Virus record (IMG/VR): IMGVR_UViG_3300009408_000002
Span: 1 to 64,000 of that record
Direction: 5' to 3' (one strand)
From: a virus
Length of the DNA stretch: 64,000 nt
Below the pieces are notes generated by a model. It did not search any database. It saw only the letters and a list, made by a program, of their open reading frames with translations, and was not told where the DNA came from. This document shows, one piece after another, positions 8,243 through 56,847 of the stretch; position 1 is the stretch's first letter; every line of letters starts with the position of its first letter. The translations under genes were made by a program, and so were the position numbers.

Positions 8243-9010
8243 ATGAATAGACCGGAGGCAGTCGTAGTCATTCCGACGCTGGGTGTAAAGGGTTTCGTCT
8301 TCAGGCTGCTCAATCATCTAGAAGTAGACCGGCCCGTGGTCTTCGAGATCAACGATTCCCCCTCTCTCTCAGTCGCGGCAAAGTGGAACATTGGTCTCGC
8401 ACGCGCAATTGCACTTGAGTGTCCTGCGCTGTTCCTCAACGATGATATTCTTCCATGGCCCGGTGCGGTTGCCGCTATGCTTGACTCACCGGCCAAGTTT
8501 GTGACTGGCATCACCACGCGCAACTTGCCTGGAGAGGGGCCGCCGCAGAAGCAAACAAGCGGTGGCTTCAGCATGTTCTGCCTCAAGCACACCGCATCTG
8601 TGGGGCTAGCAGAGTTCGAAGAATGGACGTGGCTGGAATCAGGAGTGTCGTCGCTAATCGAAGAACATTGGCCGAGCAACCACCCAAGATATGGATACTT
8701 CGACGAGAACTTCCATCCGGCATACTTCGAAGATAGCGACTACTATCATCGACTGAAGGTGGCCGGCATCAAGGAGACGGTCCTGGAAGATGCTGCTTAC
8801 TATCACGAACTGACACGCACCGGGAAGAAAGTGATGATCGGCTGCTCGACGAACCTCGGCTGTCCCGAGCGCTGGTCGCGTCATGAGCGCTGGTTTGCGC
8901 TGAACCACGAGCGGTATATGCTCAAGTGGGACGGTGAACCGCACAACGAAAAGAATACACGCCCATTTCAACACCTTCTCAAGGACCGCCTTGAGATCAA
9001 TCAATCATAA
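8243..9010 (+). CDS. GT2-like glycosyltransferase
   Basis: VVIPT, KWNIG, LFLNDDI, FDENFHPAYFEDSDYYHR. Confidence 0.8.
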   Translation: MNRPEAVVVIPTLGVKGFVFRLLNHLEVDRPVVFEINDSPSLSVAAKWNIGLARAIALECPALFLNDDILPWPGAVAAMLDSPAKFVTGITTRNLPGEGPPQKQTSGGFSMFCLKHTASVGLAEFEEWTWLESGVSSLIEEHWPSNHPRYGYFDENFHPAYFEDSDYYHRLKVAGIKETVLEDAAYYHELTRTGKKVMIGCSTNLGCPERWSRHERWFALNHERYMLKWDGEPHNEKNTRPFQHLLKDRLEINQS

Positions 9011-9179
9011 ACAGGGGAGGAAGATCATGAGCAACAGTCACTACAGTCGGGGCCTGATTGACGGCATCGCCGTGCTCGCGGAAGAAATTGAAAGCGAGAC
9101 CGGAGAACATCATGGCGACCATGATCGCGGTCTATGAGGTCATGGAGTCCATCACTGATCTTCATGCGAACGTAGCATC

Positions 9180-9527
9180 ATGAGCGGCATCAGCATCACG
9201 AGCGGAACGGAAACAGCCTGGATTAACGTCAATCATGAATTCACAAATCGAGTCAAATCTTTTCGGCTGCCCTTGTGCTCGATCTTCACTCACGCCATAC
9301 CGGTGCAAGAAATCGATGATGACCCAGGAACGACTGCTTCATTCATCATGGACATGCTGCACGAAGACGGCTTGATCCCCAGGTTCTCAGCGGTCGCATT
9401 TATCACATTCGACTGGAGCACGAACTGCCTTGTTATCGGTGTGACTTCCAGCGACTTTGAGCCAGTCCCTCCAGGAGAGATGTGCCCGTCAGAATTGTAC
9501 ATTCCATCCTCAGAGATCGTGTCCTGA
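9180..9527 (+). CDS. hypothetical protein
   Basis: 115 aa ORF. Confidence 0.55.
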   Translation: MSGISITSGTETAWINVNHEFTNRVKSFRLPLCSIFTHAIPVQEIDDDPGTTASFIMDMLHEDGLIPRFSAVAFITFDWSTNCLVIGVTSSDFEPVPPGEMCPSELYIPSSEIVS

Positions 9528-10340: not shown

Positions 10341-11822
10341 ATGGAACTCCATGAGTCCATCGCAATTGCCTTGAATCTACCGACGCAAGAAGAGCAGGAG
10401 TTCATCAAGTGCTCTCTTGATCCGTGGTACTTCCTCACCAACTACTACATTACGATTGACGAGGACGGCGAGGAGAGGCTGTTCCCCGATCACCAGTACC
10501 TTTGCGATCTGATCGGCCTGATCCACGAAAACAACCAGGTCTCAGTCCTCAAGGTGCGGCAGATGCTATTCACTCTTGCAGTTATCGGATACGAGATCTA
10601 TCAGGGGACGTTCAAGAAAAACACGACGAGCGTGAACGTCTCGAAGACCAAGCCCGATGCCATCGAGATTGTCCACCGAGCCCACTTCTCCATGTCGCAA
10701 CTTCCCGAGTTCTTCAGGGCAGAACGAGTCACGCCTCTCAATCGAGGACGCATCGAATGGGTTCATACCGGTTCACGAATCATCTCTCAGCCTTGCACGC
10801 CAGATGCCGTGCGAACATACACCCCTCAGTTCGTATTTCTCGATGAGTATGCATATCAGAAATATGCCAAGGAGGTATTTCAGTCTTGCAAGCCGGCGCT
10901 GAACAGCAACGGGAAGGTGGTGATCGGTTCAACGCCAAGCCCGCTGCAGCGCGGAGCAGAATTCAGAAAGATCTGTCTGAAGGGCAGGAAGCGTGGCTTC
11001 GTCCACATGGGCATCTCCGCAGACATGAATCCCCGCAAGACGAAGGAGTTCCTGGCCGAACAACGAGCAGCGCTAGGAGACGAGCGATACCGATACGAAT
11101 ACGGTATGTGCCTGGAACGTGCTGGTGCAGGCCACATCTTCGCGAAGGAGTACAACGAGAACAAAAATGTTGTGACCGCCTTTCCTGTCCCCAAGAAATG
11201 GAAACGATTCAGGGGCATTGACTGGGGTCCGCAATATGCCTGCATCTGGTTCGCGATCGATCCAGATCCACCGCACAATATTTACGCCTATCGCGAGCTA
11301 TACCTCAGAGGTCAGCCCACCAAGATTCGTGCTCGGCGGATGCGTCAGATCACCGGCAAAGACAGGATCGAGTGGTCGGTGTCGGACAACGCAGGACCGC
11401 AGGAAGCCACAGACATGTCTGCCGAGGGGATTACTACAATCCCGTGCCTCGCGAAGAATTTGATGGCATCCATCTGGCTGGCCAAGCGCATTCTCAGCGG
11501 TGACGGAGAAGCGTCCCAGTGCCTATATTTCTTTGACATCTGTGCCGAGCTTATTGGCGAGATCGAAGAATACACGGGCGACCAATTTGGCTATCCGATC
11601 AAGCACCAAGGGGCTCACGGCGTTGACTGCTGCCGATACTTCCTTGAGATGCTAGAATTCATGCACCAGCAGGAAGACCTCGGAGAAGAGGACGACGATT
11701 TCGGTGACGACGACTATGAAACAGACAACGAGTATGCGATGATCGATCGTGGAGTAGTCGAGGACCAGTGGAGCGACGACTCAGACGACGCCTACTTCAA
11801 CGACAGGGATCTCGACATATGA
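10341..11822 (+). CDS. terL: terminase large subunit
   Basis: DPWYF..NY, K-x-RQ Walker A region, FVFLDEYAY Walker B, GSTP, RGIDWG and HGVDCCRY nuclease motifs. Confidence 0.9.
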   Translation: MELHESIAIALNLPTQEEQEFIKCSLDPWYFLTNYYITIDEDGEERLFPDHQYLCDLIGLIHENNQVSVLKVRQMLFTLAVIGYEIYQGTFKKNTTSVNVSKTKPDAIEIVHRAHFSMSQLPEFFRAERVTPLNRGRIEWVHTGSRIISQPCTPDAVRTYTPQFVFLDEYAYQKYAKEVFQSCKPALNSNGKVVIGSTPSPLQRGAEFRKICLKGRKRGFVHMGISADMNPRKTKEFLAEQRAALGDERYRYEYGMCLERAGAGHIFAKEYNENKNVVTAFPVPKKWKRFRGIDWGPQYACIWFAIDPDPPHNIYAYRELYLRGQPTKIRARRMRQITGKDRIEWSVSDNAGPQEATDMSAEGITTIPCLAKNLMASIWLAKRILSGDGEASQCLYFFDICAELIGEIEEYTGDQFGYPIKHQGAHGVDCCRYFLEMLEFMHQQEDLGEEDDDFGDDDYETDNEYAMIDRGVVEDQWSDDSDDAYFNDRDLDI

Positions 11823-12022
11823 TCACAAGCAGCCACGAACAGGTCCGCAAAGATCACATCCAGACCATCCTGATGAACGTCGCGCTGCATGCGATGAACA
11901 TCAAGGAGCAGACGGATCCCGAGATGCGGATGCGTGCTATTGACAAATATGTCAAACAGGCGTCGAAAGACATCACGCGAGCAATCGAATACTTCTGGGA
12001 GACAGATGATGCTGTGGTGTAG
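11819..12022 (+). CDS. hypothetical protein
   Basis: ATGA overlap with the TerL stop. Confidence 0.45.
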   Translation: MITSSHEQVRKDHIQTILMNVALHAMNIKEQTDPEMRMRAIDKYVKQASKDITRAIEYFWETDDAVV

Positions 12023-14582
12023 CGACCTGAATGAGTTCGCAGCGGTTTCGTCATCCCATCCAACAGAAGCAACTGACGATCTTCTCGATCGGAAACTGAT
12101 CGACGGCGAGATCATCACGACTGACGCCAGAGATCTGGAACTGAGCTTCCTGTTTGGTACAGACATCTTCGAGAATCCAGACAGTCTGATCCGCGAAAAG
12201 GGAATGCGGATCCTGGACAAGATGCTCGACACGGATGCCGAGATCAAAAATCCCTACATCCTCAAGAAGGCGATGCGGATCTCCGGTGGATTCACGATCG
12301 ATCCGAGGCACCCAGACAATCCTACGGCTGAGGAGCGGGCCGCATTCATCAAATGGAACTTCGAGGAGTTTCTCCAGACTTCCATCCGCAGTTTCCTGCT
12401 CAAGATCTGGGACGCAACGCGCCAAGGATTCAAGATCGCCGAGATCGTCTGGCGGGTGATACCAGACGGGCCATGGGCCGGAAAGATTGGCCTGTGGGAT
12501 CTGCGCGTCAGGAACTCAAGGAACTATTCGTTCGCGACCGACGAGAACGGCAGGATCAAGCCTGACGGGATTGTCGAGGGAATGTCTTCGACCGGCATCC
12601 AGATCTCTGGCAAAGCTCCCCGCAGGCTGCCTCGCCGAAAGTTTGTCATCTACACCTACGCCTCGCTGGATGATGACGGGGCGTCTCTGTATGGCCGCAG
12701 CGACTATCGAGTAGTGTGGCGCTACTATTACGGCAACCTAGTTTCACACAAGAATGAACTGAGGGGCATCGAGACGACCACTAGGCCCCCGGTTATCCTG
12801 CAACATCCCACCAGCTATCAAAAGACTCAGCGCAAGGCAATCGTCAAAAAGTTCTCTGGTGCATACAACCGCGTCGCAACCAGTCTCCCTTCAGACTGGA
12901 AGTGGGATGTTCTGGAGTCGAAGCGCACTAGCGATGCGATTCCGCACATGATGGAGTACAACGGGGACCAGATCTCTCGCGGTCTCCTGATGGGGCCATT
13001 CCTGCAGGGCGCAAAGAAGCAGGGCGTGTCGATGGGTCGCCAGCAATTGCTGACGTTCATCTTCATGCTCGATGCGCTAGGCGAGGAGACTAGCGATGAC
13101 ATCATGGGTCGGCAGATCATCGAGCCGTTGATCAGAATGAACTTCGATGGCCCACTGATGGCGCCCATCTTTAAAATGCCAAAGATGTCGAAGGACAGGG
13201 TTACGCTAGGGGCATTCATCAAGGATCTTGCCGAGTCCGGGGTGATCGATCCTGGTGAGGCATGGATCAGAGAATTCGTTGATGTGCCACCCCAGTCATC
13301 TTCTGACGCCGATCGGATCAGGGGCAATGAGTCTGCCGACGCCAACCCCGACAACATCCCGCAGTCGTATAGTGCCAATCGTGGTGATCACGTATTTGTC
13401 CGAGGCGGCGAAATCGTAGGCGTGACGTTCCAGAAGATTGATCCCATCGACAAGCCGATCGCACATTTCCTCTTCGCCGAGGAAGACAATGGCCAGTCGC
13501 ATGTCCTGGTATCAAGACCGGTCTCCATGGAACGCGCCAAACTGCTGGCCAAGTCGATCACCGGTTCCAGGCGCGACATCAAGGTTCGCATCGGCACGAT
13601 GGTCGGCAGAGTAATGGGGTTTCCTGCATTCAGGATCGATGAGATCATCACATCGCAGTTCGATGGGCCAGTTTCCTTTTCCGAGAACGACTCTCCTCAG
13701 TGCCGAGTTGATTTTATTCGAGTCAATCGAAAGACCCGACTGATCGAGGACTCGGCCCGTGTCGCTGTGATCCGTGGATTCAAGAAGTCGTTCAAGAGCG
13801 TCAATGAGTTCATCGCCAAGCGCTCGCTCAAGTCTGCGCTGAATGATCTGTCACAACGCTCACAGGACATCTCCTTCCTGTCGCGGCAGCTCTCTGCAAT
13901 CTCGACTGCCCTGTTCACTCAGGGCGGGATCGACTTTATGTCGGAAGCCAAGGCCACCCCGTCAGGGGGCTCTGGGGACCCGTCGCTAACCCTTGATACA
14001 CTCGGCCTGACGGGCAAGGATCTCGCTCCGTTTGATACCTCCCGTTCCGACATGGAATCGCTGCCGATAGATGCTTTTGCGTGGAAGCAATTCTCTGAGA
14101 TCGCGATCGACACAACAGGGTTTGTGTTCGACGAGGAAGAGTCGAGGATCACGCTGGCAATCGTTGGACTGCTGAGGGAGGCTGTGTCCTCCAAGATCAC
14201 AAAAGATGATTTCCTCAAGCAGTTTGATGACAGGTTTGCCAAGTGGGCATCTGAGGATGTCGGATCACGGGTCGATCTTGTCATGCGAAACATCGGGAAT
14301 CAGTTCTACAACATGGGCCGCCTGAAAACTGGACGAGCCCTTCCGTCTGTGCGCGCCTTCCAGTACAGCAGCCTGATGGACGAACGAGGCACAAAGTTCT
14401 GTGAGACGTTTGGAGACTTCGTTGCCGACAAAAATGCGAGAGTCTGGGACGGCTTGATCCCCCCAAACCATTTCGGTTGCAGGAGCATTATCCTGCCCGT
14501 CCTCAACTCCGACTCCATGAAGGACTCGACACCCATCCCGCGCTTGCAGCCCTCGCCGGGCTTCGGTAGAATTCGTACATGA
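12006..14582 (+). CDS. portal protein (DUF935/Mu gp29-like) fused to a MuF (gpF/SPP1 gp7-like) minor head protein
   Basis: GFKIAEIVW, KFVIYTY...LYGRS, QIIEPLIRMNF, WIRE..DVP portal motifs; C-terminal YNMGR..QYSSLMDERG..C...PPNHFGCRS MuF motif. Confidence 0.85.
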   Translation: MMLWCSDLNEFAAVSSSHPTEATDDLLDRKLIDGEIITTDARDLELSFLFGTDIFENPDSLIREKGMRILDKMLDTDAEIKNPYILKKAMRISGGFTIDPRHPDNPTAEERAAFIKWNFEEFLQTSIRSFLLKIWDATRQGFKIAEIVWRVIPDGPWAGKIGLWDLRVRNSRNYSFATDENGRIKPDGIVEGMSSTGIQISGKAPRRLPRRKFVIYTYASLDDDGASLYGRSDYRVVWRYYYGNLVSHKNELRGIETTTRPPVILQHPTSYQKTQRKAIVKKFSGAYNRVATSLPSDWKWDVLESKRTSDAIPHMMEYNGDQISRGLLMGPFLQGAKKQGVSMGRQQLLTFIFMLDALGEETSDDIMGRQIIEPLIRMNFDGPLMAPIFKMPKMSKDRVTLGAFIKDLAESGVIDPGEAWIREFVDVPPQSSSDADRIRGNESADANPDNIPQSYSANRGDHVFVRGGEIVGVTFQKIDPIDKPIAHFLFAEEDNGQSHVLVSRPVSMERAKLLAKSITGSRRDIKVRIGTMVGRVMGFPAFRIDEIITSQFDGPVSFSENDSPQCRVDFIRVNRKTRLIEDSARVAVIRGFKKSFKSVNEFIAKRSLKSALNDLSQRSQDISFLSRQLSAISTALFTQGGIDFMSEAKATPSGGSGDPSLTLDTLGLTGKDLAPFDTSRSDMESLPIDAFAWKQFSEIAIDTTGFVFDEEESRITLAIVGLLREAVSSKITKDDFLKQFDDRFAKWASEDVGSRVDLVMRNIGNQFYNMGRLKTGRALPSVRAFQYSSLMDERGTKFCETFGDFVADKNARVWDGLIPPNHFGCRSIILPVLNSDSMKDSTPIPRLQPSPGFGRIRT

Positions 14583-15025
14583 TCTCGAACGTCACCTACG
14601 AATCGCTGACAAGCGAGGATCGCGACCTGATGCTCAATGGCTGCGGTCCTCAAGTGGGTGACTTTGAGAACACAGCAGACTTCTTTACTGCTGCGTGCAA
14701 CCTCCACGATTTCCGCTATCGAGTCGGTGGCCCAAGAGACATGGCGGACGGAGACTCCTCCTGGCGATTCAAGGCCGACAAGGAATTCAAGCGCAACATG
14801 TACCGCATGATCTCCGATTCGATCAGTTTCTGGCTTAGGTGGCTCTACTACTTCAAGGCTTGGGGCTATTATCGGCTGGTCAGAAACTACGGGTCCAGCG
14901 CCTTCAAGTTTAGGCCAGAGGCCGCCATCGTAACCCTCGACATGATGCGTGCAGAGGCCATCATTGATGGCAGGGAAGACAGCCCGCTGTTCACAGCACA
15001 CATCAGCAAAAATGGTGTAGTCTAG
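14579..15025 (+). CDS. phospholipase A2-like (CxxHDxxY) protein
   Basis: NGCG, ACNLHDFRY, RFKADKEFKRNM, YYRLVRNYG. Confidence 0.65.
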   Translation: MISNVTYESLTSEDRDLMLNGCGPQVGDFENTADFFTAACNLHDFRYRVGGPRDMADGDSSWRFKADKEFKRNMYRMISDSISFWLRWLYYFKAWGYYRLVRNYGSSAFKFRPEAAIVTLDMMRAEAIIDGREDSPLFTAHISKNGVV

Positions 15026-15045
15026 CTCAAGACCCTGCTGGTAAG

Positions 15046-17739
15046 ATGTATGGGATGCTTGAGTTCATTGCGCTCGCGAAGATATCCCCAGCCGCACTGA
15101 AGAATGAATCCGACAAGTCGCTGATCAACCTCCATCGCCGGATGCACCAGTTCTGGTCAAATCCAGCGATCAATCGGGAGGAGATCGTAAATCGGCACAT
15201 CTTCATTCTTGAGGAGATGCAGCGGCGTGGCTTCAGCCATAACGCCAAGGGCGAGCTTGACGAGAAGACGGAGAAGCTTTCCGGTATCGGATCTTTCAGC
15301 GAACAGTACGCACCAGTCAGCCACAGTGACCAGGCACGCCACGACCCGATTCTCCTGGAAGATATCATGCCGGCTCTGGGATGGCCGATCAAGCTGCGCG
15401 AAGGGTTCGTGTGTTTGACGGGCGGGCTGGTCGCAAATGGATCGTCGCCAAACGACATCGACATCCTGCTTCAGTCGATCACCGACGAAGAACTCAGACG
15501 AATTGTCGAGTTCAGGATATATCGAATGCTGCCGACATCTCGCATGCATTTGGTATGGGACACCGCTGGACCATTCACTTCTCACATCCCGTTGTATGAC
15601 CTCTCCTTGGTCAGGAATTCTTCGTTTCCAGATGTCCATCTGAAGCAATATCCATCGGGAAACGACCAGGGGCTCAGGTTCGATCTGCACGAGGTGCTTG
15701 AACGATTCGATTCGGCGATCATCCAGAGAAACTCAATCTTCCTGGCTGGAGGGATCGTCAACCACGGCTCGTCGCAAAACGATCTGGACGTAATAATTCG
15801 GCTGCCCAGTGACGAGCAGTTGGATCAAGCGGTGCGATTCATGATAGGCAGAATGTTCCCCAAGGAAGAGCGACAGTTCATCCACTGGCTCAGCAGAACC
15901 TTCGGGTCTCTCAGCAAGTATGTCAAGCTCTACGATCTCCAGCTTACTGTCGCGACCGCCTACCCAAACGTCATCCCGATGACCGAGCAGTTCGCCAAGC
16001 AGAAAACCATTCTGGATCAACCTGGGCCAGAGAAGTCGTTCATCGTCGCAACCAGTGACGGGAAGCGTGTCAAGTTCCAGTCTAATTCGTTCATCCTGGC
16101 GGATCGTCGCGCAAAATTTCTTGCGACGAAAGACCCAGGCAGGGCCATATTTTCCGCCTATGAAGCACGGACAACCTATCAGCGAAAAGCGGGGCAGCCG
16201 CCAAGGCCAGTGCTTGACTTCTCTATCGAGTTTGCCGATCCAGAAGAAGATGTTCTTGATTCACTAGGACCGGGACAGACATTCAAGTGGTTCGGTCTGC
16301 CGGTTACATTTGACGGAAATTTCACACCCGGACTAAACCAGCGAGGCGAGTCGTTCAGGCTGGCGATCGAAGAGCTGTATCGAGCAAGAAAGACCAGGGG
16401 CAAAGAGCCCAAGCTCACGAAAGAACTTGCCCTATATTCCGATCGATCGGGAAACCCCGACATCGACCACGAGCGCTGCTACATCTGCCTCTTCGGCAGG
16501 CGACCAGAGGTCGGCGAAACCATGCTGTGCTCGAAGGTCCAGGGCGACATCGATGTGGCTGGATGGTGCTTCCAGTTCCTGAATCAAGGTCGCGAGAAAA
16601 ACGACTCCGGCAAACTTGAAAAGAGACTGGTGATGTTGCTCTCTGAAGAACTTGGCATCAGGGCAGATGAGAACAAGCCGATTTCATTTGCGACCCCAAA
16701 GCCAGTCAAGACGCCAACGATCGGAAAATTCTTCGAGATGCCAAAGCCGAACCTGGGTGCTCGACAGGGGCAGCACATCTCACTCGACTCGCTTATCGAG
16801 AACGCGAAGGATTTCCCATACCTCGTGTCGAAGAAGTTCGACGGCATCCGGCTTCAGATCCATGCTGTCAAGTCTGACAGATCATTCACAGTGTTCACTG
16901 AGCAGGGTCAAAACATAACGTCCAAGCTGCCCAAGATTTTCGCGGCAGTCGCCGGGCTCAACTTCGATGAAAACGTAATCCTCGATGCGGAGCTTGAACG
17001 ATGGGAAAACGGCAAGCACATCGATCGAGAAGCCGTTGCGGGGGCAATCAATTCTTCGTCAGCGAGCGACCTGGCGGGATGGGTAATCAATCTCTTCGAT
17101 ATCATTATGCTGGGCGGCAAGCCGGCGAATGAAATTGAATCCTTGGACCGCCTTGCGCTCCTGAAGACTCTTAGCGTCAATCAGTCAACTGAAGATGCAC
17201 CTAACCCAGCAAGGCCGTTCAATCTTGCCATCCAGCATAGCGCCAAAAGGCCATCTGAACTCAGGAGGCTAGCTGCATCCCTGGCCAAGAAGCCAGGATC
17301 AGAAGGAATCGTTGCAAAGCCCTTCGCGAGCCTCTATCCCCTGAAGCCTGCGCAACCAGCATGGATCAAATTTCGCAAGACCATCGTCGTGAGGGGCATT
17401 GTGATCTCCAGAACAAAAACATCTGACGGAGATGCGTTCATTTATGAATACGGCGTGAGGCCGGTTGATCAGAAGGATCTTGATCAGTCCAGGGTGAAGA
17501 AGCTCGGCGACAAATCCGCCTTCCTGGTCGGAAAAACATTTTCGACAAAGAGAAGGTTCGAGGTCGGAGATCAGATCCCTGTAGAGCTTCACAATGTGAA
17601 CAGGGAGACATCGAACGGGAAGACCGTTATCACCGGCTTCCTGCCTCGCGTGGTCGAGGCCATGAGCGGAAAACTAGATACTGCCGGATCGATTGTCGAT
17701 CGTGCAGCCGAGAGCGGAATCCTGATAGAGAAAAATTGA
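15046..17739 (+). CDS. multidomain protein: small helical domain, 2x Pol-beta-type nucleotidyltransferase, HiPIP-like Cys motif, ATP-dependent DNA ligase
   Basis: LTGGLV.NG.S.NDIDIL and LAGGIV.HG.S.NDLDVI; CxxC..C..V.GDI...GWC; KKFDGIR, ILDAEL, LFDI, SEGIVAK, WIKFRK. Confidence 0.85.
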   Translation: MYGMLEFIALAKISPAALKNESDKSLINLHRRMHQFWSNPAINREEIVNRHIFILEEMQRRGFSHNAKGELDEKTEKLSGIGSFSEQYAPVSHSDQARHDPILLEDIMPALGWPIKLREGFVCLTGGLVANGSSPNDIDILLQSITDEELRRIVEFRIYRMLPTSRMHLVWDTAGPFTSHIPLYDLSLVRNSSFPDVHLKQYPSGNDQGLRFDLHEVLERFDSAIIQRNSIFLAGGIVNHGSSQNDLDVIIRLPSDEQLDQAVRFMIGRMFPKEERQFIHWLSRTFGSLSKYVKLYDLQLTVATAYPNVIPMTEQFAKQKTILDQPGPEKSFIVATSDGKRVKFQSNSFILADRRAKFLATKDPGRAIFSAYEARTTYQRKAGQPPRPVLDFSIEFADPEEDVLDSLGPGQTFKWFGLPVTFDGNFTPGLNQRGESFRLAIEELYRARKTRGKEPKLTKELALYSDRSGNPDIDHERCYICLFGRRPEVGETMLCSKVQGDIDVAGWCFQFLNQGREKNDSGKLEKRLVMLLSEELGIRADENKPISFATPKPVKTPTIGKFFEMPKPNLGARQGQHISLDSLIENAKDFPYLVSKKFDGIRLQIHAVKSDRSFTVFTEQGQNITSKLPKIFAAVAGLNFDENVILDAELERWENGKHIDREAVAGAINSSSASDLAGWVINLFDIIMLGGKPANEIESLDRLALLKTLSVNQSTEDAPNPARPFNLAIQHSAKRPSELRRLAASLAKKPGSEGIVAKPFASLYPLKPAQPAWIKFRKTIVVRGIVISRTKTSDGDAFIYEYGVRPVDQKDLDQSRVKKLGDKSAFLVGKTFSTKRRFEVGDQIPVELHNVNRETSNGKTVITGFLPRVVEAMSGKLDTAGSIVDRAAESGILIEKN

Positions 17740-18119
17740 TGACGGATACAGAACTGGTCAAAACCGTTGCAGACCTATCAAGAATTGCCAAGGACCTGAA
17801 CTCTACGATCACGTTCATCCAGTGGGCTGCAGTCCCGATAATCGGCGGAATGGCTGCCGCAATCGGCGCGATGTGGTTCAGAATGAACACGAGAGCAACA
17901 GAACACCAGAAAGCGCTTGAGCAGCGAGAGAAAGAAAAAGACGAGCTAAACGACAAGTGGCGCGCATCAGCCAAGGAACTGTCAGAGGAGCATAAGCAAG
18001 AGATCAGTCGGTTTGCTGAGAAGAGCAATGATCTCACCGTCAAGGTGACCCGCGTCATGGAGCATGCGCTCAACATCCCTCCAGCAGCCGACATACCAGC
18101 AAGAGGGGGCGGCCAGTGA
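17739..18119 (+). CDS. single-TM coiled-coil membrane protein (holin-like candidate)
   Basis: FIQWAAVPIIGGMAAAIGAMWF TM segment followed by a charged coiled coil. Confidence 0.55.
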   Translation: MTDTELVKTVADLSRIAKDLNSTITFIQWAAVPIIGGMAAAIGAMWFRMNTRATEHQKALEQREKEKDELNDKWRASAKELSEEHKQEISRFAEKSNDLTVKVTRVMEHALNIPPAADIPARGGGQ

Positions 18120-18328
18120 ACAATGGCAATGGAAACGGAGCAGAAGGCACAAGATCGAGATCGAGGCGATCGGCAGAACTATTGCAGGAGGCAACCGATC
18201 GGATCGATGAGTTCATCAGCAATGACCGATTGAGAGGATGTGCAACCGGGGTTATGAAGAATCCCGACAAGAAGACGATTGAAGCGATCATTGCCGCGAA
18301 GGAGGCGGCAGAAAACCTGACGACATGA
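18116..18328 (+). CDS. hypothetical protein
   Basis: 4-nt overlaps at both ends. Confidence 0.5.
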   Translation: MNNGNGNGAEGTRSRSRRSAELLQEATDRIDEFISNDRLRGCATGVMKNPDKKTIEAIIAAKEAAENLTT

Positions 18329-21270
18329 TTGTATTTCAGGAGCAGTTTCTCAAGTTCCCGCTGAAAGATCCGACAGATTTCGTTCTCCAGTCGCATGTGC
18401 GAGGAAAATCCAACCACATGGATTTTAGATTTGCTATTGACGGCAAAACTCTCGCTGGCTACACTCTCGTTGGAGTTGATGGGCTGAGTCGTGAGCCAGC
18501 AAACCTGGCTGAGGCGAAGAAGCTCATCAAGCCGGGTATCGAAATAGCTCTGAACCGTCTATCGGATCATTCAGGAAAAACCCGCGCAGAGCCGAAATCG
18601 ACCCAGCCTACGATATGGCTCAGGATCGGAGATCGGGAGTTCGCTCCCGGAGAGATCGGGGCCACGAAGAACAAGAAGGGCTGGATCATAACGCTGGAAA
18701 AAGCGAAGCTGAAGTTCGGCGCACAACTGAATGACTTCCACGAATACTGGGTCCAGGGCAGCAAGATCAAGGGAAGATTCCTCTTCCGACAGCTTGCCCA
18801 GAAAACAATGCGACCGTCTGGCGAAGATGCGCCGCCAGGAGAAGTCTTCTTCTGGAATGCATGGTTCGCAAAGTCACAGGTCCCGTTCGTCCTGTCCAAG
18901 CGTGCAGTTGATGAGCCCTACATCTCGCCGCGAGGAAGTTCTGCGCTCCCGGATGAGATCGAGAAACTCGTCCCCGAGAGATTCCGATATTGGAAGTTCA
19001 GCTCTGAGTCCAAGCGGCGTGCCGTGCGAGATGAACTGCGTGAGGCAATCAAGAGCAACGATGTGCCAATTGAGATATCGTTTTCTCAAGACGATCCACT
19101 CGAAGAGTTCGAGGCCACAAAACCGGGTCCTGGGCGGTTCTCTCTGCAGCGAAGAATCTTTCGCGGCCCTATCCAAGTTCGCGTTGGCCCAACCCGCCAG
19201 ATCTTCGATCTCCGAATCGCACTGGACAACGAAACACAGGCGCGTCATTTCGTCCTTGATCAAGATCCGCGCAAGAACTTCAAGTTGTCAGCGACACTTG
19301 AGGCCGCCACTGGCAAGGACAAGCTTGAGATCGGTCGAGGCGGGACCAAGAGAGTCGAACCGGGTACACGTCTCAATCCCAGCAAGAACACCCCCGCGTT
19401 TGTCGAGTTGCTCGACTCGGGGCCTGTCCGCCTGGCCAATGATTCGGGCATGGTCAAGATCTTTCGCTTTTCAGGGAAAACGCTCAATGCCCAGTTGGTA
19501 TTCACTAGGCAGGGCAAGACGAACGTATTCGGAGTTGCGCGAAGCAACGCCAGCAAGAAAGGTGACTCGATGACAGACCCCAGCATGAGGGGGCACGGAC
19601 CATATCCGTACAAGTCTCCGTACCCCTATCCTGCCGTCGCGAAGAAGGCCGCAGGGTCCAGTCCATACCCATACCCAACAACGGGAGATGGAAGCAGCAA
19701 GGTGATCAAGGTGATCGCTCGCCTGCTAGGACTCTCGGCTGTATCGGACGCTGACAAGGACAGGCTCAAGGCAATCCGCGACCGTGCGGGAAAGGGACAG
19801 CTTTCACCACGAGACATCGCGTTCGTCTCGGCGCTCCGCAAGAAGATGGGCATCAGCCTGTCGGATGGGACACCCTTCTCCTTCACTGCCGAGTTTCCTC
19901 ACTATCCATATGACACCAGCGAGTTTGCTGAGCGCTGTCCCGACCTGCAATGGCCGGTGTCGCTATGTGAGTTTGGCGAGGAGTGCCCCGCTGAAGGATC
20001 TGACAGGAAGGCTGCCTGCGAATGCAAGTTCGCGCAGGAATACGGCTGCCCGATCTTCCTGCAGGACATCACTCCTTGTTCCGCAGAGGAATTCGAGAAC
20101 GTCTCCAAGATGAAGGATGATCTTGGCATCGTTGATATGAAGGGGATCGAAATTGCAAGGACAGGTGAGTGGAATGGCATCCGATTCACCGAAAAGGATC
20201 TCGAAGAGATCGCAAGCAATTTCAATGCTCTGAAGGGCGAACTGGATGTTCCGCTCAAGCTGGGCCATCATGAAGAGCAGACGCTCCTGCACAATTCTGG
20301 CGAGCTGGCTGCAGGATGGGCCGATCGGCTCTATCGCCAGGGAAAGCGGCTGTTTGTCGATGCAAGTTCAGTCCCGAAACAAGTCTCGGAACTGATCAAA
20401 CGCCGTGCGTTCCGAAAGATCTCGATGGAGATGTTCAAGGACTTCGTGGATGCTTCTGGCAAGCGCGTAGGCAAGACACTGAAGGCGATCTCGCTGTTGG
20501 GATCAAGCACGCCCGCGATTCGCGGGATGAAAAATCTCGACGACGTACTAGCCCTATACCAGTCGGAACTGGGCGAAGGCGTTGTCCTCATCTGCTGTTC
20601 GGAGGATTCGATGGACGACAACGAAGAGAAGAAGAAGACCGCCGAGGGCGATCCGAATCCGTCGCAGGATGAGGAAATCGTCAAGCTGCGTGCGGAACTG
20701 GAGTCCCGCAAGGGAGAGCTTGAGGCCCTGAAGTCTCAGCAGGGCGTGCTCACCATGGCGCTCCAGGAGACCAGGATTCAGCGTGCCAAGGACGCAAACG
20801 AGTCGGCATACAAGAAGCTGCTCAGCGAGGGCAAGGTGCTCCCGCGACAGGAGGCTCGATTCAAGCTTCTGCTGGGTGCGATCGATGCGGTTGCGGATTC
20901 CGTGAATCCAGAGGGCATGTTCTTCTCGGAACTGACCTACGACAAGGAAGCGCAGAAATTCGCACTGAAGACTGGCGTGGGCGAGGACGGAAAGGATCAG
21001 TTCAGCCATGAGACGCTGAAGGATCTGTTCGTCAACTTTGTTGCGGACCTGGAGGATCAGGTCGATCTCAATGACAAGACGCACGACATGGATCCAGACG
21101 GCAATCGCAAGATCGAGAGCATCTCGACTGGCAGTGCTGGCGATCAACTGGAGAAGCTCGCGCAGGAGTTGATCACCAAGGACGACAAGCTGGACTACGG
21201 AGAGGCACTAGCCCGCGCTTCGCGGCAGATGGTGGAGAGCGGCATCGACATCAAGCTGCTCAATTCGTAA
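18325..21270 (+). CDS. LigD 3'-phosphoesterase-like domains (x2) fused to a Mu gpI-like prohead protease and scaffold
   Basis: FVLQSHVRGKSNHMDFRF (PE motif); IARTGEW...PLKLGH...AAGW...FRKISME...AISLLGSSTPAIRGM protease; coiled-coil scaffold tail. Confidence 0.82.
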   Translation: MIVFQEQFLKFPLKDPTDFVLQSHVRGKSNHMDFRFAIDGKTLAGYTLVGVDGLSREPANLAEAKKLIKPGIEIALNRLSDHSGKTRAEPKSTQPTIWLRIGDREFAPGEIGATKNKKGWIITLEKAKLKFGAQLNDFHEYWVQGSKIKGRFLFRQLAQKTMRPSGEDAPPGEVFFWNAWFAKSQVPFVLSKRAVDEPYISPRGSSALPDEIEKLVPERFRYWKFSSESKRRAVRDELREAIKSNDVPIEISFSQDDPLEEFEATKPGPGRFSLQRRIFRGPIQVRVGPTRQIFDLRIALDNETQARHFVLDQDPRKNFKLSATLEAATGKDKLEIGRGGTKRVEPGTRLNPSKNTPAFVELLDSGPVRLANDSGMVKIFRFSGKTLNAQLVFTRQGKTNVFGVARSNASKKGDSMTDPSMRGHGPYPYKSPYPYPAVAKKAAGSSPYPYPTTGDGSSKVIKVIARLLGLSAVSDADKDRLKAIRDRAGKGQLSPRDIAFVSALRKKMGISLSDGTPFSFTAEFPHYPYDTSEFAERCPDLQWPVSLCEFGEECPAEGSDRKAACECKFAQEYGCPIFLQDITPCSAEEFENVSKMKDDLGIVDMKGIEIARTGEWNGIRFTEKDLEEIASNFNALKGELDVPLKLGHHEEQTLLHNSGELAAGWADRLYRQGKRLFVDASSVPKQVSELIKRRAFRKISMEMFKDFVDASGKRVGKTLKAISLLGSSTPAIRGMKNLDDVLALYQSELGEGVVLICCSEDSMDDNEEKKKTAEGDPNPSQDEEIVKLRAELESRKGELEALKSQQGVLTMALQETRIQRAKDANESAYKKLLSEGKVLPRQEARFKLLLGAIDAVADSVNPEGMFFSELTYDKEAQKFALKTGVGEDGKDQFSHETLKDLFVNFVADLEDQVDLNDKTHDMDPDGNRKIESISTGSAGDQLEKLAQELITKDDKLDYGEALARASRQMVESGIDIKLLNS

Positions 21271-21312: not shown

Positions 21313-21696
21313 ATGTCCGACTCTCTGACGGACCCTGGGATTTTCCGGGCCGGGGAAGCTCTTGCGCTCGGGAACATCCTGACGATCGACATCACGCCTT
21401 CAGCCAAGACGGTCAAGCTGGCTGACGGTGCAGTGGATGAGCCGTTTGCCCTGGCAAAGGGTGTCAGCCTCAAGGATGCAGAGGCCAAGATTGCAACCGG
21501 TGACGGGAAGATGGTCAGATTTCTCCTGGGGGGCACTGTCACTAAGGGTGACACCCTCCAGCCTGGAACTGCGGCATCCAAAGGCAAGGCGGTCAAGGCT
21601 GCAACTTCCGGCAAGCTGGTGTTCGGGCGTGCCTTCGAATCCGGTGTAGACGGCGATATCGTCCTGGGCGAGATCGTTCGGTTCATTCTCCCCTAG
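21313..21696 (+). CDS. capsid decoration/cement protein (DUF2190-like)
   Basis: G/A-rich 127 aa, LGGTVTKGD, GRAFESGVDGDIV; lies between scaffold and capsid; AGGAG RBS. Confidence 0.7.
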   Translation: MSDSLTDPGIFRAGEALALGNILTIDITPSAKTVKLADGAVDEPFALAKGVSLKDAEAKIATGDGKMVRFLLGGTVTKGDTLQPGTAASKGKAVKAATSGKLVFGRAFESGVDGDIVLGEIVRFILP

Positions 21697-21718: not shown

Positions 21719-22645
21719 ATGCCGATTCTGGACCGGAGCGAAGTCCACGTTGACGTACCGCTCACCAACCTGGCGATCCAACTCGCAGTGCCAGGGTTCG
21801 TGGCCGAGCAGATCGCGCCCATCGTGCCCGTCAAGAAGGAGTCCGATGTCTATTACGAGTTCAATCGTGAAGAGATCCGGGCCATCGATGACGGCGAAGG
21901 CGACCTCAAGGCCGATGGTGATGTCGCAGGGACGTTCCACTGGAAGCCGAAAGGCACTGTGCCATACGTGTGCGTCAAGCGCGCACAGAAAGACCTGATC
22001 ACCGATCGCCTCGTCGCAAATGAGGATGCACCGATCAAGGCTCGCCAGCGCACGATGAACAAGCTGGTGCTGTTCCTGCGAACGCAGCAGGAGATTCGTG
22101 TCACCAAGCTGATGACGGACATCGCGACTGTCGCATTCACGCCAGCCCCGCTGATTTGGACTGACCCCAGTGCAGAGATCGAGGAGGACGTGAAAGCCGC
22201 CAAGGAGGCGATCCGATCCGTCATCGGCGTCGAGCCCAACATGTTCGTCATGGGCAAGGCGGCAGAGAACGCCGTTGTCGATTTCCTGAAGGCGACCTCG
22301 GAGATCTCGATCGCAGAGCGCAGTCGTATCACCACGATCCCCGACACACTTTGGGGCATGAAGACTGTGGTCAGTGGTTCGATCAAGGACACGTCGGCTC
22401 GCGGCGCAACCGTCGAGGCGCTGTCCGATATCTGGCCATCGACCATCGCATTGCTGGCCTGGGTGAATCCGAGTCCTCCTGGACTGGAAGACATGTCTTT
22501 CGCATACATCCTTCGTCAGCAGGCCATGAAGGTTCGGACATGGCGTGATGAGGAGCGAGAGGCGAGCTGGATCGAGCCCGGATGGATCCAGACCGAGAAG
22601 TTGATCGAGCCTCGTGCCGGACACCTGATCACTGGCATCCTGTAG
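21719..22645 (+). CDS. major capsid protein (HK97 fold expected)
   Basis: VHVDVPLTNLAI..FVAEQIAPIVPVKKES, IGVEPNMFVMG, AGHLITGIL; position; strong RBS. Confidence 0.85.
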   Translation: MPILDRSEVHVDVPLTNLAIQLAVPGFVAEQIAPIVPVKKESDVYYEFNREEIRAIDDGEGDLKADGDVAGTFHWKPKGTVPYVCVKRAQKDLITDRLVANEDAPIKARQRTMNKLVLFLRTQQEIRVTKLMTDIATVAFTPAPLIWTDPSAEIEEDVKAAKEAIRSVIGVEPNMFVMGKAAENAVVDFLKATSEISIAERSRITTIPDTLWGMKTVVSGSIKDTSARGATVEALSDIWPSTIALLAWVNPSPPGLEDMSFAYILRQQAMKVRTWRDEEREASWIEPGWIQTEKLIEPRAGHLITGIL

Positions 22646-44648: not shown

Positions 44649-47111
44649 ATGCTGACGCCCGACCACGTACTACCACTTCTCAAGGGCGTCGTGAAATCGG
44701 GAGAGGGCTGGAAGGCCCTCTGCCCGTTTCACGACGATGATAAGCCGTCGCTATCAATCAAGGAGGGCAGTGACGGCAGGGTTCTTCTTCACTGCTTCAC
44801 TGGCTGTTCGTTCACCCAGATTCTTAGCGCACTTGGCCTGAAGCTACCCAAGCAGGGGTCAGGCGGATTTCTTGCAACCTATGATTATGTAGACCAAGAC
44901 GGAAAGCTTCTGTTCCAGGTCTGCAGGACCGTAGACAAGAAATTCTTTCAGCGCAGGAAAGATGAATACGGCGACATTATCTGGGGATTGGCAGCCGGCT
45001 TCTACCAGAAAAACAAGAGTGGCAACTGGGTTCGGATTTCCCCAAAAGAAGCCAAGGACAATCCTGCCGCCAAGGAGTTTCCTGAATGCGAAAAGCATCT
45101 CTATCGGCTCCCCGACATTCTTCATGGCATAGCAGACCAGCAGACCGTCTTCCTGGTTGAAGGCGAAAAGGATGCTGATCGGCTGGCGTCTGCCGGCCTG
45201 ATCGCAACATGCAACCCTGGCGGCGCAACTGGCGGCAAGCCGGGCGAGAAATGGATTAGCAAATACACCAACGTCCTTGTGAAGGCCAAGGAAGTTATTG
45301 TCATCCCAGACAATGATGATGTGGGCAAGGAGTTCGCCCTTAGGGTGTCTAGGATAATCTGCAAGGCGGGCGGCAACTCCAAGATCCTCTCTCTCCCGTC
45401 TCTTCCGCCGAAAGGTGACGTGTCCGATTGGCTGAAATCACCAGACAACTCTGTGACAGATCTGACAGAGCTTGCTGCATTCGCCTCAAAGCCTCCGCTG
45501 CCCAAGGTGAACTCCGCATCCGACATCCCCTTGCTGATGACAGAAATGATCGAGAAGGGAGACTGGCTTCTAGCAATGGAGCTTTGCTTCTCGACAGAGG
45601 CGATGGACGCGCTGGCATCTATCGAGATCCCCGAGCTTGCAGTTCTCCGGTCACAGATCAAGCAGCTTCTCCCAAAGAAGATCAACCTCAAGGATCTCAA
45701 CGCGGCAATTTCTGTCGCTCGCAAGCGGATCAAGAAGAAGTCAGTTCAGGCAGACCTCGCCAGTGATCCGATCGGTGCATTCTTTGAAGCGACCGATAGC
45801 GGGGCGCAGCGGTTCGTTCCATCGAAACTGGGCAGATGGATTGCCCAATCGGGAGACTACCTGTTCGTTGCGGGCAAACTAAAGGTCTACAAGGATGGAT
45901 ACTATCAGGATGACGCAGGTCGCGTAGAGAAGCTGATCGTCGAGGCGCTTGGCGAGTCATGGGACATGTATCACTGTCGGCAAGTCATCACTTGGATGAA
46001 GCAGCAGTTCTTTATTGACGCAAAATCTCTCCCTGTCAATCACGGGCTCCTCTGCCTCAAAAACGGCGTTTATGACATCAAGACGTCGAAGCTATACAAG
46101 CACAACAAGAAGTATCGATTCTTGGTGCAGCACCCAATCAAATATGACCCCGATGCGAAGAGCGACTCTCTCGACAAGTTCGTGAACGATGTCTTCGAGT
46201 CGTCATGCATTCCTGTCATCTGGGAGTTCGCGGGCTATTGCCTCCTGCCTCAATCTGTCGAGATGAAGAAATTGATCATCCTGACGGGGCGGCGGAATAA
46301 CGGAAAGTCAACGTGGCTGTCCTTCCTGGAAAAGTGTCTCGGCGAGGAGAACTGCTCACACGAATCCCTGCAGTCACTCGCCGAGGACAAATATTCTGTG
46401 GCCGAGCTATTCGGGAAGGTCGCCAATATCGTCAGCGATCTTGATGCCAGCTTGGTCCGCAGGACAGATGTGATCAAGCAGTTGACCGGCGGTGATACAG
46501 TACGTGGAGAGCGGAAGTATCAGGACCCGTTCTATTTCCAGAATCGCGCTCGAATGATCTTCAGCGCCAATGAGCTGCCGTCTATCTCGGACTACAACGA
46601 GGCATTCTTTGATCGCCTTCTGATCGTTCACTGTCCTAACATCTTTGAGCTAGGGAAGAACGCTGATCCGTCCCTGGCTGCAAAGCTCAACACCGAGCAG
46701 TGCAAGAGCGCATGGCTCAATGGGGCGCTCCAGGGGGCCGTCAGGCTGCTTCAGAATCGATGCTTCTCGCAGAGCCCGGACATCGAGGCGATGATCGGTG
46801 CCTACATGAGGGAATGCGATTCCGTGACTGAGTTTATTCACGAATGCTGCATCCGTGAAGCAGAAGGCTTCACTCCCAAACGCGAGTTGTACAAGGCTTA
46901 TACAGATTGGTGTCGCCCTAACAACAGACCGGCTGTCAGTTCGATACGATTCAGCAAGCGTGTTCAACAGCGACCCAACAACCTAACGACTACCCGCAGG
47001 TTCGTAGCGGCTGACTCCAAACAAGTCTGGTCGTGGCTCGGAGTCAGGCTGTCGGGTAACATCACCCTTATTCGTCAAGAAGCACAAGAGCACTGGTATG
47101 ACAAAATCTGA
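44649..47111 (+). CDS. primase-helicase (CHC2 Zn finger + TOPRIM + D5/SF3 helicase)
   Basis: CPFHDD.KPSL..HCF.GC; VEGEKDAD, IPDNDDVG; G.RNNGKST, KQLTGGD, FSANELP. Confidence 0.92.
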   Translation: MLTPDHVLPLLKGVVKSGEGWKALCPFHDDDKPSLSIKEGSDGRVLLHCFTGCSFTQILSALGLKLPKQGSGGFLATYDYVDQDGKLLFQVCRTVDKKFFQRRKDEYGDIIWGLAAGFYQKNKSGNWVRISPKEAKDNPAAKEFPECEKHLYRLPDILHGIADQQTVFLVEGEKDADRLASAGLIATCNPGGATGGKPGEKWISKYTNVLVKAKEVIVIPDNDDVGKEFALRVSRIICKAGGNSKILSLPSLPPKGDVSDWLKSPDNSVTDLTELAAFASKPPLPKVNSASDIPLLMTEMIEKGDWLLAMELCFSTEAMDALASIEIPELAVLRSQIKQLLPKKINLKDLNAAISVARKRIKKKSVQADLASDPIGAFFEATDSGAQRFVPSKLGRWIAQSGDYLFVAGKLKVYKDGYYQDDAGRVEKLIVEALGESWDMYHCRQVITWMKQQFFIDAKSLPVNHGLLCLKNGVYDIKTSKLYKHNKKYRFLVQHPIKYDPDAKSDSLDKFVNDVFESSCIPVIWEFAGYCLLPQSVEMKKLIILTGRRNNGKSTWLSFLEKCLGEENCSHESLQSLAEDKYSVAELFGKVANIVSDLDASLVRRTDVIKQLTGGDTVRGERKYQDPFYFQNRARMIFSANELPSISDYNEAFFDRLLIVHCPNIFELGKNADPSLAAKLNTEQCKSAWLNGALQGAVRLLQNRCFSQSPDIEAMIGAYMRECDSVTEFIHECCIREAEGFTPKRELYKAYTDWCRPNNRPAVSSIRFSKRVQQRPNNLTTTRRFVAADSKQVWSWLGVRLSGNITLIRQEAQEHWYDKI

Positions 47112-55405: not shown

Positions 55406-56674
55406 TCAAACAAAGTCCTTGTCCTGAATCGCACTCGCAAACAACTCGTCCTTGTCGTGGCACAGCTCAAACATTCTTCTGTCGAGCGGATGGTCCACAA
55501 CAAGATAGATGTAGGAGCATGCGTTCTTCTGCGTCATTCGATAGATCCGATCCTCAGCCTGCGTGTTGTAGGCGGCAACCCAGTTAGGATCAACGATCAG
55601 CATGTTCGATGCACGTTCCAGGTTGAGCCCTTCTTTATGGGCCATGATGGTTAGTCCCAGCCCGTCGATATCCCCGCCCTGGAAAGCCTTTATTCGGCGG
55701 ACCCTTTCTCCATTCGCCACTGAGCCATTCGAGTAGGCCCAGTGCTTCCTTCCGCCCAGTCGCTCGACAGGCAGCTTGTGATCGCTGAATGCAACCAATG
55801 GGACGCCATCAAACGAGTCTGCGATATCCATGGCGAATGGAATCTTCCTCTCAGCCAACAGCCTTCGTACTGTCGCGAGTTCAAACATCAGTGGGCAGGT
55901 ACCGGTCCTGATCGCCCCCTGGACATCGAGGTACAGGTCGAGCTTCGAGTTCGCCTCACCAAGCAACTTCAACTGTGAGGCACTGAACTTCGGATCAACC
56001 ATGATTGTCTGCCATCTCTTTGGCGGCAACTGAGGAAGCACGTCCTCTCTTTCGCGCCTCAGCATTATTTTCGAGATGGTAGGATAGAGACTCTTTTCGA
56101 TATGCCACCGCCCATCGATGCAGATGAAGTGACGCATGAATGTGGTCATCGACCCCCACGTCTCCTCCATCATCCGGGTGACCATCAAGATCGCCCCCAG
56201 TTCGGACGGTCTATTGAGCAGCGGTGTCCCCGTAAGCGTCACCAACTTCCCATGAGGAATCACGCAGTCAACCAGATCCATGACGCACATCGATCTAATT
56301 GAGTCGGGATTCTTGCAGGCATGGACTTCATCAATGATTAGGGCGACGCCTTCTCCATCAGCCATCTCAAGCCCATGCCTGGGCAAGATGTCATAGTTGA
56401 AGATCAGAGCTTCGCCGGACTGTGGCCACCGAAACGACTTCCGACCAAACATCGCCTGCGCTGAAATATCTGATCGCCAGATCTCGAACTCATCGACCCA
56501 GTTACGCTTCAGCGAAGCAGGGCAGATGACCATGATCTTCTCGAAGTCAGATGTCCCGCAGATTGCCTGAGCGGTCTTGCCAAGGCCGGGCGGATCGGCG
56601 ATGAGGGACTTGGTTCGTCGCTTGATAAAACTTACGCCGGCTGACTGGTAGGGGTATAGTCTCAACTCACTCAT
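55406..56674 (-). CDS. SNF2-family helicase (HARP/SMARCAL1-like)
   Basis: LYPYQ, IADPPGLGKT, ICPASLK.NW, IIDEVH, LTGTP..NRP.E, EGLNL, QAEDRIYR. Confidence 0.9.
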   Translation of the reverse strand: MSELRLYPYQSAGVSFIKRRTKSLIADPPGLGKTAQAICGTSDFEKIMVICPASLKRNWVDEFEIWRSDISAQAMFGRKSFRWPQSGEALIFNYDILPRHGLEMADGEGVALIIDEVHACKNPDSIRSMCVMDLVDCVIPHGKLVTLTGTPLLNRPSELGAILMVTRMMEETWGSMTTFMRHFICIDGRWHIEKSLYPTISKIMLRREREDVLPQLPPKRWQTIMVDPKFSASQLKLLGEANSKLDLYLDVQGAIRTGTCPLMFELATVRRLLAERKIPFAMDIADSFDGVPLVAFSDHKLPVERLGGRKHWAYSNGSVANGERVRRIKAFQGGDIDGLGLTIMAHKEGLNLERASNMLIVDPNWVAAYNTQAEDRIYRMTQKNACSYIYLVVDHPLDRRMFELCHDKDELFASAIQDKDFV

Positions 56675-56847
56675 CGAGTTTGACTGGCGTCTCGGAATAC
56701 TTGCCATCACGATCGATGTGAGTTTCTGCGTCGGCCCTCATCTGATCGATGAGCTGCTCGGGGGGCGTTTCCTGCCGATCGCAGATTGCAGGATAAACTC
56801 CATCAGCAAGTGATCAAACTGAGCACCCAGATCGTCACGAATCGTTT

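Follow-up and report, generated by a model that had tools for sequence, protein, structure and literature searches.

The window analyzed here, 64,000 nucleotides corresponding to positions 1 to 64,000 of the IMG/VR virus record IMGVR_UViG_3300009408_000002, contains a head module in which two large genes encode enzymes predicted to heal and seal DNA ends. The full record, of 76,915 bases, is classed as linear and is estimated to be about 58% complete. The first of the two genes (15046..17739, + strand; all coordinates are those of the window unless stated otherwise) encodes an 897-amino-acid protein, P0001, in which two probable nucleotidyltransferase (NTase) repeats precede an ATP-dependent DNA ligase. 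The second (18325..21270, +) encodes a 981-amino-acid protein, P0002, in which two phosphoesterase (PE) domains of the LigD type are fused in frame, through a linker, to a prohead protease and a coiled-coil tail. On balance, we favor the interpretation that this region serves an uncultured tailed virus as its head-assembly module, and that the ligase, NTase and PE domains constitute a DNA repair kit built into the head. The initial annotation of this DNA had proposed that the phage loads a toolkit for healing, extending and sealing nucleic acid ends into its capsid, and our analysis supports that proposal in part, namely in its domain assignments, which are firm for the ligase, firm on grounds of fold for the PE domains, and probable for the NTase repeats.

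Direct Pfam, NCBIfam and PDB sequence searches gave no match for residues 1-600 of P0002, and the PE domain emerged only through a profile of 47 sequences and a fold search. The AlphaFold (AF2) model of the first copy, PE1 (residues 1-255; 18325..19089, +), has a predicted local distance difference test (pLDDT) score of 90.7 and adopts the beta-barrel of the LigD 3'-phosphoesterase. In a Foldseek search with this model the top seven PDB matches are all LigD PE structures (3p43, two chains of 3n9b, 3n9d, 3p4h, 2lj6 and 5dmp), with a probability of 1.00 and target template modeling (TM) scores of 0.59-0.81. When the profile of PE1 and its homologs is compared with PDB sequences, the top five matches are 3p43, 3p4h, 5dmp, 3n9b and 2lj6 (E-values from 7e-4 to 0.09), aligned to LigD PE on the catalytic Q-x-H...H-x-D-x-R segment. 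The LigD phosphoesterase-like domains that had been proposed for P0002 are thus borne out both by profile and by fold. Pfam LigD_N (PF13298) has no match in P0002 or anywhere else in the 76,915-base record, and two PE relatives reach 25.6 bits on this model, below its cut-off of 31.1.

The metal-binding His-His-Asp triad and the accompanying Arg of the P. aeruginosa LigD PE are His42, His48, Asp50 and Arg52. PE1 carries Q22, H24, H31, D33 and R35 in the catalytic segment, the last four of which align with the H-x5-H-x-D-x-R of 3p43, 3p4h and 5dmp. The 47 PE1 sequences show no variation at H31, D33, R35, W98, F138 and E140 and very little at H24, K91 and P95 (H24 being kept in at least 90% of them); the conservation of H31, D33 and R35, together with that of H24, K91 and P95, argues for PE1 being an enzyme rather than filler. 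The segment E-D-H-P-x-x-Y of LigD corresponds to K91-S-T-Q94-P95-T-I-W98 in PE1, and the consensus of the PE family at this point is K-A-x-Q/E-P-x-x-W. Judged from these alignments, the PE active site is a variant one, in which the metal triad is retained and two catalytic positions are changed. The second copy, PE2 (residues 256-440; 19090..19644, +), is degenerate but keeps the D-x-R motif, and its profile matches that of PE1 with an hhalign probability of 96.7% (E = 3e-10).

The protease domain to which these copies are fused (P0002 residues 600-749; 20122..20571, +) was identified through PHROG models of head maturation proteases (phrog_976, 2.7e-28, residues 600-738; phrog_3894, 1.9e-19), and homologous protease domains in relatives precede major head genes. 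The acidic, coiled-coil tail that follows (residues 750-981; 20572..21270, +) has weak coiled-coil-type matches only, among them one to the DUF4355 scaffold (E = 0.66). It is probably a scaffold, by analogy with the placement of such segments in protease-scaffold fusions. Of the fusion to a Mu-type prohead protease/scaffold that had originally been described, the in-frame joining of PE and protease domains therefore stands and the scaffold is probable, while the label "Mu-type" is not supported: the record was searched with Mu-like_Pro (PF10123), the Pfam family for the gpI-type protease, and yielded nothing at E <= 1, and XkdF (PF14550) likewise has no match to the P0002 protease. The linker between PE2 and the protease (residues 441-599; 19645..20121, +) belongs to no family that we could match. 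It begins with a Pro/Tyr-rich repeat, PYPYKSPYPYP ... SPYPYP (19597-19680, residues ~425-452), which starts in the tail of PE2, and it contains a Cys-rich segment (19936-20094, residues ~538-590); these two segments may serve as a flexible tether or as a processing region.

The C-terminal part of P0001 (residues 561-897; 16726..17739, +) is a minimal ATP-dependent DNA ligase, as had been annotated. It matches Pfam PF01068 at 1e-16 when the whole protein is searched (61.7 bits against a cut-off of 26.2) and at 2.6e-17 when the segment is searched alone, and phrog_114 matches the same region. Motif I is K597-F-D-G, and motifs III, IIIa, IV and V read ILDAELE, INLFDII, EGIVAK and WIKFRK; motifs I-V, which lie in the adenylyltransferase domain, align to the Pyrococcus and Thermococcus structures 2cfm and 3rr5 (PDB search, 1e-5). 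The nearest NCBIfam model is NHEJ_ligase_lig (3.7e-13, far below its cut-off). The LigD ligase models TIGR02776 and TIGR02779 score 46.5 bits against a cut-off of 373 and 49.4 bits against 228, respectively, so that the P0001 ligase does not count as a LigD equivalog.

The N-terminal 310 residues of P0001 were modeled with AF2 from a 46-row alignment (pLDDT 79.3), which yielded a helical domain followed by two alpha/beta repeats. The two repeats, NT1 (15343..15630, +; G126, D137, D139 and D172) and NT2 (15658..15960, +), are predicted to be minimal NTase domains of the Pol-beta type. NT2 was recognized by alignment and by its BLASTP match (3e-13) to the single repeat present in a protein of ANMV-1, an uncultured ANME-1 archaeal virus; it keeps the GG and D-L-D motifs and has Ser in place of the acidic residue equivalent to D172 of NT1. 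G126, D137 and D139 are invariant in 44 homologous repeats and form the hG[GS]...DxD signature of Pol-beta NTases. The initial annotation had read two Pol-beta-type motifs in this protein, and it is this signature that holds, whereas the profile and fold matches to Pol-beta NTases are weak. The best matches of the repeat profile to PDB sequences are a minimal nucleotidyltransferase (MNT) antitoxin, terminal deoxynucleotidyltransferase (TdT) and a CCA enzyme, at E-values of 0.45-2, and Pfam NTP_transf_2 matches three of the 44 repeat members. Family-X polymerases (TdT, Pol mu, Pol beta and Pol lambda) make up most of the top Foldseek rows for the N-terminal model, but with E-values no better than 0.07. 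VIA structure searches, for which the 310-residue model was used, were swamped by the helical N-domain; the only matches reaching the alpha/beta part were MNT antitoxins (Z 3.9-4.0, residues 116-299). The AF2 topology of the repeats fits the alpha/beta NTase fold. Since every one of these weak matches points to the Pol-beta superfamily, we assign NT1 and NT2 to it as probable, not proven, NTase domains.

The helical domain in front of the repeats (P1_N, residues 1-84; 15046..15297, +) was defined by the AF2 helices at residues 2-79 and by an iterated hidden Markov model (HMM), and it recurs upstream of the NTase or ligase in 41 related loci, at times doubled or tripled. Its counterparts in relatives score at or above the cut-off of Pfam Pyr_excise (the family of T4 endonuclease V), but the match is confined to the final ~27 positions of the model, at its C-terminal end, and thus gives no indication of a complete glycosylase. 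The middle region of P0001, which separates the NTase repeats from the ligase (residues 306-560; 15961..16725, +), has the four-cysteine pattern C-x2-C-x13-C-x12-C and may bind metal. It has no Pfam match, and an iterated HMM finds it in no other related locus; we saw it only in the close relative P0157.

We then asked how widely the PE module occurs and what accompanies it. An exhaustive phmmer search with P0002 residues 1-440 identified 867 relatives at E <= 1e-3 and 628 at E <= 1e-10, counted as representatives of clusters at 50% identity; most are proteins of 1000-2300 amino acids. Many homologs were found for each of the two large proteins, which indicates that their open reading frames (ORFs) are real genes and not chance ORFs. 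A ligase domain is present in 29 of 32 long PE-module representatives and a prohead protease (Peptidase_S78_2 or S78) in six or seven of them; in ANMV-1, as in numerous metagenomic proteins, a single polypeptide carries both ligase and PE. Contigs from metagenome-assembled genomes that contain the module are labeled Thermococci, Archaeoglobales, Thermoprotei or uncultured archaeon, and also Lentisphaera and other bacteria. Relatives thus occur in archaeal and in some bacterial bins, and the replication genes of the virus do not discriminate between these host domains.

In the window both large genes lie between the portal-MuF fusion gene and the capsid gene, as had been annotated, and this placement is conserved. 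We scanned 62 related IMG/VR loci with iterated HMMs built from the domains of the window and found the recurrent order [helical N]-NTase-ligase-PE-PE(-PE)-protease, with ligase in 52 loci, NTase in 52 and protease in 35, mostly directly after the PE gene. In a PHROG scan of neighboring genes, portal, terminase and minor head families dominate upstream (91 ORFs), and major head, maturation protease and scaffold families dominate downstream (109 ORFs). The set is therefore located between portal/terminase genes and protease/major head genes, and homologs are linked to head genes, the opposite of what the initial annotation had named as a refuting outcome. In-frame fusions of PE, or of ligase plus PE, to the protease occur in several lineages, among them this window, locus L010 (ligase-PE-protease, 1471 amino acids), locus L030 and the six or seven long representatives with a prohead protease. 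Several related viral loci also show in-frame interruptions of the ligase or of PE1, of about 1 kb, which are probable inteins (L020, 7094-8043; L027, 7151-9371; L045, 2446-3539; L059, 2626-3566; L054, 1776-2812 and 3646-4604; L060, 4307-5253 and 6150-7375).

From the gene position and the fusion to protease and scaffold we infer a scheme of encapsidation, release, delivery, substrates and timing. P0002 would assemble inside the procapsid, and because PE1 and PE2 are fused to a protease-scaffold protein that works there, they would be expected in the head interior; this fusion is the best argument for head cargo. The ligase protein, which is encoded between the portal-MuF gene and the protease, would probably be co-assembled. 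The prohead protease would then release the enzymes, which would stay in the head with the DNA and either leave together with it at infection or act on it inside the head. PE1 would clear blocked 3' ends of a 3'-phosphate or terminal ribonucleotide, the NTase domain may attach or alter a nucleotide at the 3' end, and the ligase, possibly packaged in an already adenylated state, would seal nicks or join genome ends.

A broader and more specific version of this scheme, which we put forward tentatively and hold to be rather less probable than its being simply a head-borne repair kit, is that a large group of uncultured tailed viruses, of which many come from sediment and hydrothermal samples and are binned with archaeal as well as bacterial genomes, load such a kit into the capsid through the prohead protease/scaffold. 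The kit would comprise a ligase, perhaps pre-adenylated, a variant LigD-type 3'-phosphoesterase and a minimal nucleotidyltransferase. While the particle waits, its genome would accumulate nicks and blocked 3' ends, and on entry the kit would repair them, or covalently close the genome, before viral gene expression and without the host ligase.

Several observations weigh against a packaged repair kit. Gln94 and Trp98 of PE1 replace the catalytic His84 and Tyr88 of LigD, and with such a departure at two catalytic positions LigD-like chemistry is not assured, while PE2 of this virus has lost both metal-binding histidines. The NTase fold matches are weak (Foldseek E >= 0.07, VIA Z ~4), and the oligonucleotide-binding (OB) domain of the ligase is a probable assignment: the ~115 residues past motif V align to ANMV-1 and have no Pfam OB-domain match, and the motifs aligned extend as far as motif V, with motif VI a presumed part of this region. 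Fusion is not the rule, since most related loci encode the protease in an ORF of its own. A code of F-[S/A] cleavage sites at the domain junctions, through which the protease might release its cargo, is not supported by the sequences: three proteins contain 10, 13 and 8 such sites against about 7.3, 7.9 and 7.7 expected, and among the sites at junctions, F316, F548 and F534 have no counterpart in the close homologs P0157 and P0004, F253 being only loosely matched. The initial annotation had noted the absence of Ku and of a polymerase of the archaeo-eukaryotic primase (AEP) type, and profile searches of the 76,915-base record indeed find no match to Ku (PF02735) or LigD_Prim-Pol (PF21686), nor was a DNA polymerase seen among the ORFs scanned; as the record represents about 58% of the genome, the remainder could still encode Ku or a polymerase. 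Finally, among 50,697 GenBank phage records only that of the uncultured ANMV-1 contains the module, and no cultured phage among them carries the set whose packaging and delivery are predicted here.

The strongest rival explanation, which we nevertheless regard as unlikely, is that the set is expressed late and is not packaged, and that it acts in the cytoplasm on replicated or concatemeric DNA, where it closes nicks and cleans 3' ends so that the terminase motor packages intact DNA. Gene position would then only ensure co-expression, and the protease fusion would be cut off or incidental. Nicked DNA impairs packaging in T4-type phages, in keeping with such a role, and the separate protease ORF of most loci and the fact that the sole GenBank carrier of the module comes without a virion proteome also speak for it. 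It is countered by the in-frame fusions to prohead protease/scaffold, which arose independently in several lineages and place the enzymes in the procapsid, away from unpackaged DNA. It is also countered by a second ATP-dependent DNA ligase of 626 amino acids (57460-60365, -; PF01068, 8e-28; NHEJ_ligase_lig, 3e-35, below cut-off), which means that the head-module ligase is not the only one in the genome. This longer ligase is encoded in a minus-strand replication/recombination operon, directly downstream of a RecA/KaiC-like ATPase gene and near an SNF2 helicase gene (55406-56710, -), which suggests that the head-module ligase has a separate job.

We consider it improbable that the set is instead an RNA repair or counter-defense kit, perhaps delivered with the DNA, that heals and rejoins host RNAs, tRNAs among them, after cleavage by anticodon nucleases or comparable defenses, or whose NTase modifies a host defense protein. 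The combination of healing and sealing follows the logic of the T4 Pnkp/Rnl system, which heals and then seals RNA; two of the 32 long PE-module representatives also match Pfam RNA_ligase, and MNT-type NTases can AMPylate proteins, as the title of PDB entry 7ae9 indicates. Against this, the P0001 ligase is a member of the DNA ligase family, with the LigD ligase models as its nearest matches, and accessory domains found in the 32 representatives are predicted to act on DNA (Dam methylase in six, C5 methylase in one, metallo-beta-lactamase in three and uracil-DNA glycosylase in one). No 5'-kinase is linked within the module. A 171-amino-acid P-loop protein that matches Pfam AAA_33 (1e-10), a family that includes polynucleotide-kinase-type kinases, is encoded far from the head module and outside the window (8967-9482 of locus L071, corresponding to genome positions 71967-72482, -); if it were a 5'-kinase, it would complete a heal-and-seal set. 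We give very little credence to a mainly structural role, with PE and NTase as dead internal head proteins that bind DNA or bulk the scaffold and at most the ligase active, since the loss of the metal ligands in PE2, of the His84/Tyr88 equivalents in PE1 and of the third acidic residue in NT2 is outweighed by conservation typical of active sites, namely the metal triad and Arg of PE1, invariant or nearly so in 47 divergent sequences together with a newly conserved K91 and an invariant W98, and the invariant G and DxD of NT1 in 44 sequences.

A head-borne DNA repair kit would be of interest for several reasons. Virion-carried proteins such as the N4 RNA polymerase, T4 Alt and MuF-fused toxins let phages act before gene expression, and a carried DNA ligase with a 3'-end-cleaning enzyme is, as far as our literature searches show, apparently undescribed; those searches, in which most subscription journals were not covered, returned no description of a head-module or packaged DNA ligase or PE. 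The PE family itself, with its 867 clusters, is almost wholly unannotated; the labels given by Pfam and PHROGs are limited to the ligase and the protease. If packaged, the kit would account for the ability of viruses that spend long periods outside a host to remain infective despite genome damage, and would offer a natural route by which foreign enzymes could be brought into capsids via the protease/scaffold. The LigD phosphoesterase superfamily would also gain a divergent branch, possibly one of different specificity. A kit that acts on entry would represent a new class of virion-borne pilot enzymes.

The remaining genes of the head module, which spans 10.3 to 22.6 kb on the plus strand, were assigned from the ORF list and from Pfam, PHROG and NCBIfam scans. 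It starts with the large terminase gene (10341..11822, +; phrog_2, 5.6e-17, along with other PHROGs of the large terminase), followed by the portal-MuF fusion of 882 amino acids (11934..14582, +, with an alternative ATG start at 12006). Of this fusion, which was part of the initial annotation, the portal domain is well supported (residues 92-447; Portal_Mu PF06074, 9e-19; phrog_113, 5.5e-22); the MuF/SPP1-gp7 minor head domain (residues 746-856) is recognized by its PPNHxGCRS motif, with profile scores just below the cut-offs (PF04233, 1.7e-3; TIGR01641 for SPP1 gp7, 1.8e-8, 34.7 against 39.65 bits). Three small ORFs of this interval had not been mentioned initially. The first encodes a 148-amino-acid protein resembling prokaryotic phospholipase A2 (PLA2) and lies between the portal-MuF and ligase genes (14579..15025, +; PF09056, 6.1e-5, 24 bits, below the 29.4 cut-off); its C-N-L-H-D-F-R-Y motif resembles the PLA2 His-Asp dyad, and it may be further head-borne enzyme cargo. 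The second, of 127 amino acids (17736..18119, +), is wedged between the ligase and PE-protease genes and is followed by ~205 bp without a long ORF; its product has one hydrophobic helix and a coiled coil, and a weak match to phrog_1533 (6.5e-4). The third encodes a scaffold-like protein, also of 127 amino acids (21313..21696, +; phrog_673 head scaffolding, 5e-6), and precedes the major head protein gene (21719..22645, +; phrog_1005, 4e-35). Elsewhere in the window the replication genes include RusA, ParB and an 820-amino-acid fusion of a DnaG-type primase (zinc ribbon, Toprim) to a D5-like helicase (44649-47111, +). The record contains no tRNAs and has no terminal direct or inverted repeats at its ends, and hence it gives no clue to the genome ends or the host.

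In its chemistry the set resembles bacterial LigD and non-homologous end joining (NHEJ), where an ATP-dependent ligase is likewise found together with a nucleotide-adding domain and with a 3'-phosphoesterase that shares the fold of the viral one; the viral PE keeps the His-His-Asp metal triad and the Arg, and the ligase is nearest to LigD ligase models. It differs from that system in that the viral record lacks Ku and an AEP primase-polymerase and has a minimal Pol-beta-type domain in place of the AEP. The viral PE is duplicated, with one copy dead and His84/Tyr88 changed to Gln/Trp, and the viral genes score far below the LigD family cut-offs and lie in a head module, with fusion to the prohead protease.

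A known relative is the ANMV-1 "ATP-dependent DNA ligase" (AJP62006.1, from KP703175), which has the same NTase-like repeat, ligase and PE-PE arrangement and is ~26-38% identical by domain to P0001 and P0002. Unlike the proteins of the window, it unites all domains in one 866-amino-acid protein with a single NTase repeat and no protease fusion, and it is annotated only as a ligase. Two other ANMV-1 genes were considered as counterparts, the 1166-amino-acid gene downstream of its ligase for P0002 and the "MutT-like" gene for the portal-MuF fusion, and both proved unrelated.

Large multi-domain enzymes encoded beside portal/MuF genes, for which loading into the head and delivery along with the DNA are predicted, are an established theme (Iyer et al. 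2017, PMC5512222); LigD is not mentioned in that work, and ligase appears in it only in connection with RNA ligases. With these polyvalent and packaged proteins, including T4 Alt, N4 virion RNA polymerase and MuF-fused toxins, the present set shares a multi-domain enzyme among portal, MuF and head genes, whereas its predicted cargo would heal and seal DNA ends and is anchored through the prohead protease/scaffold, not through MuF or the portal. It is also comparable with T4 IPI-III and Alt in that cargo would enter the procapsid via the scaffold/protease system and, presumably, be released there. T4 uses a short targeting peptide for this purpose, whereas in the present set complete enzymes form part of the protease-scaffold polypeptide.

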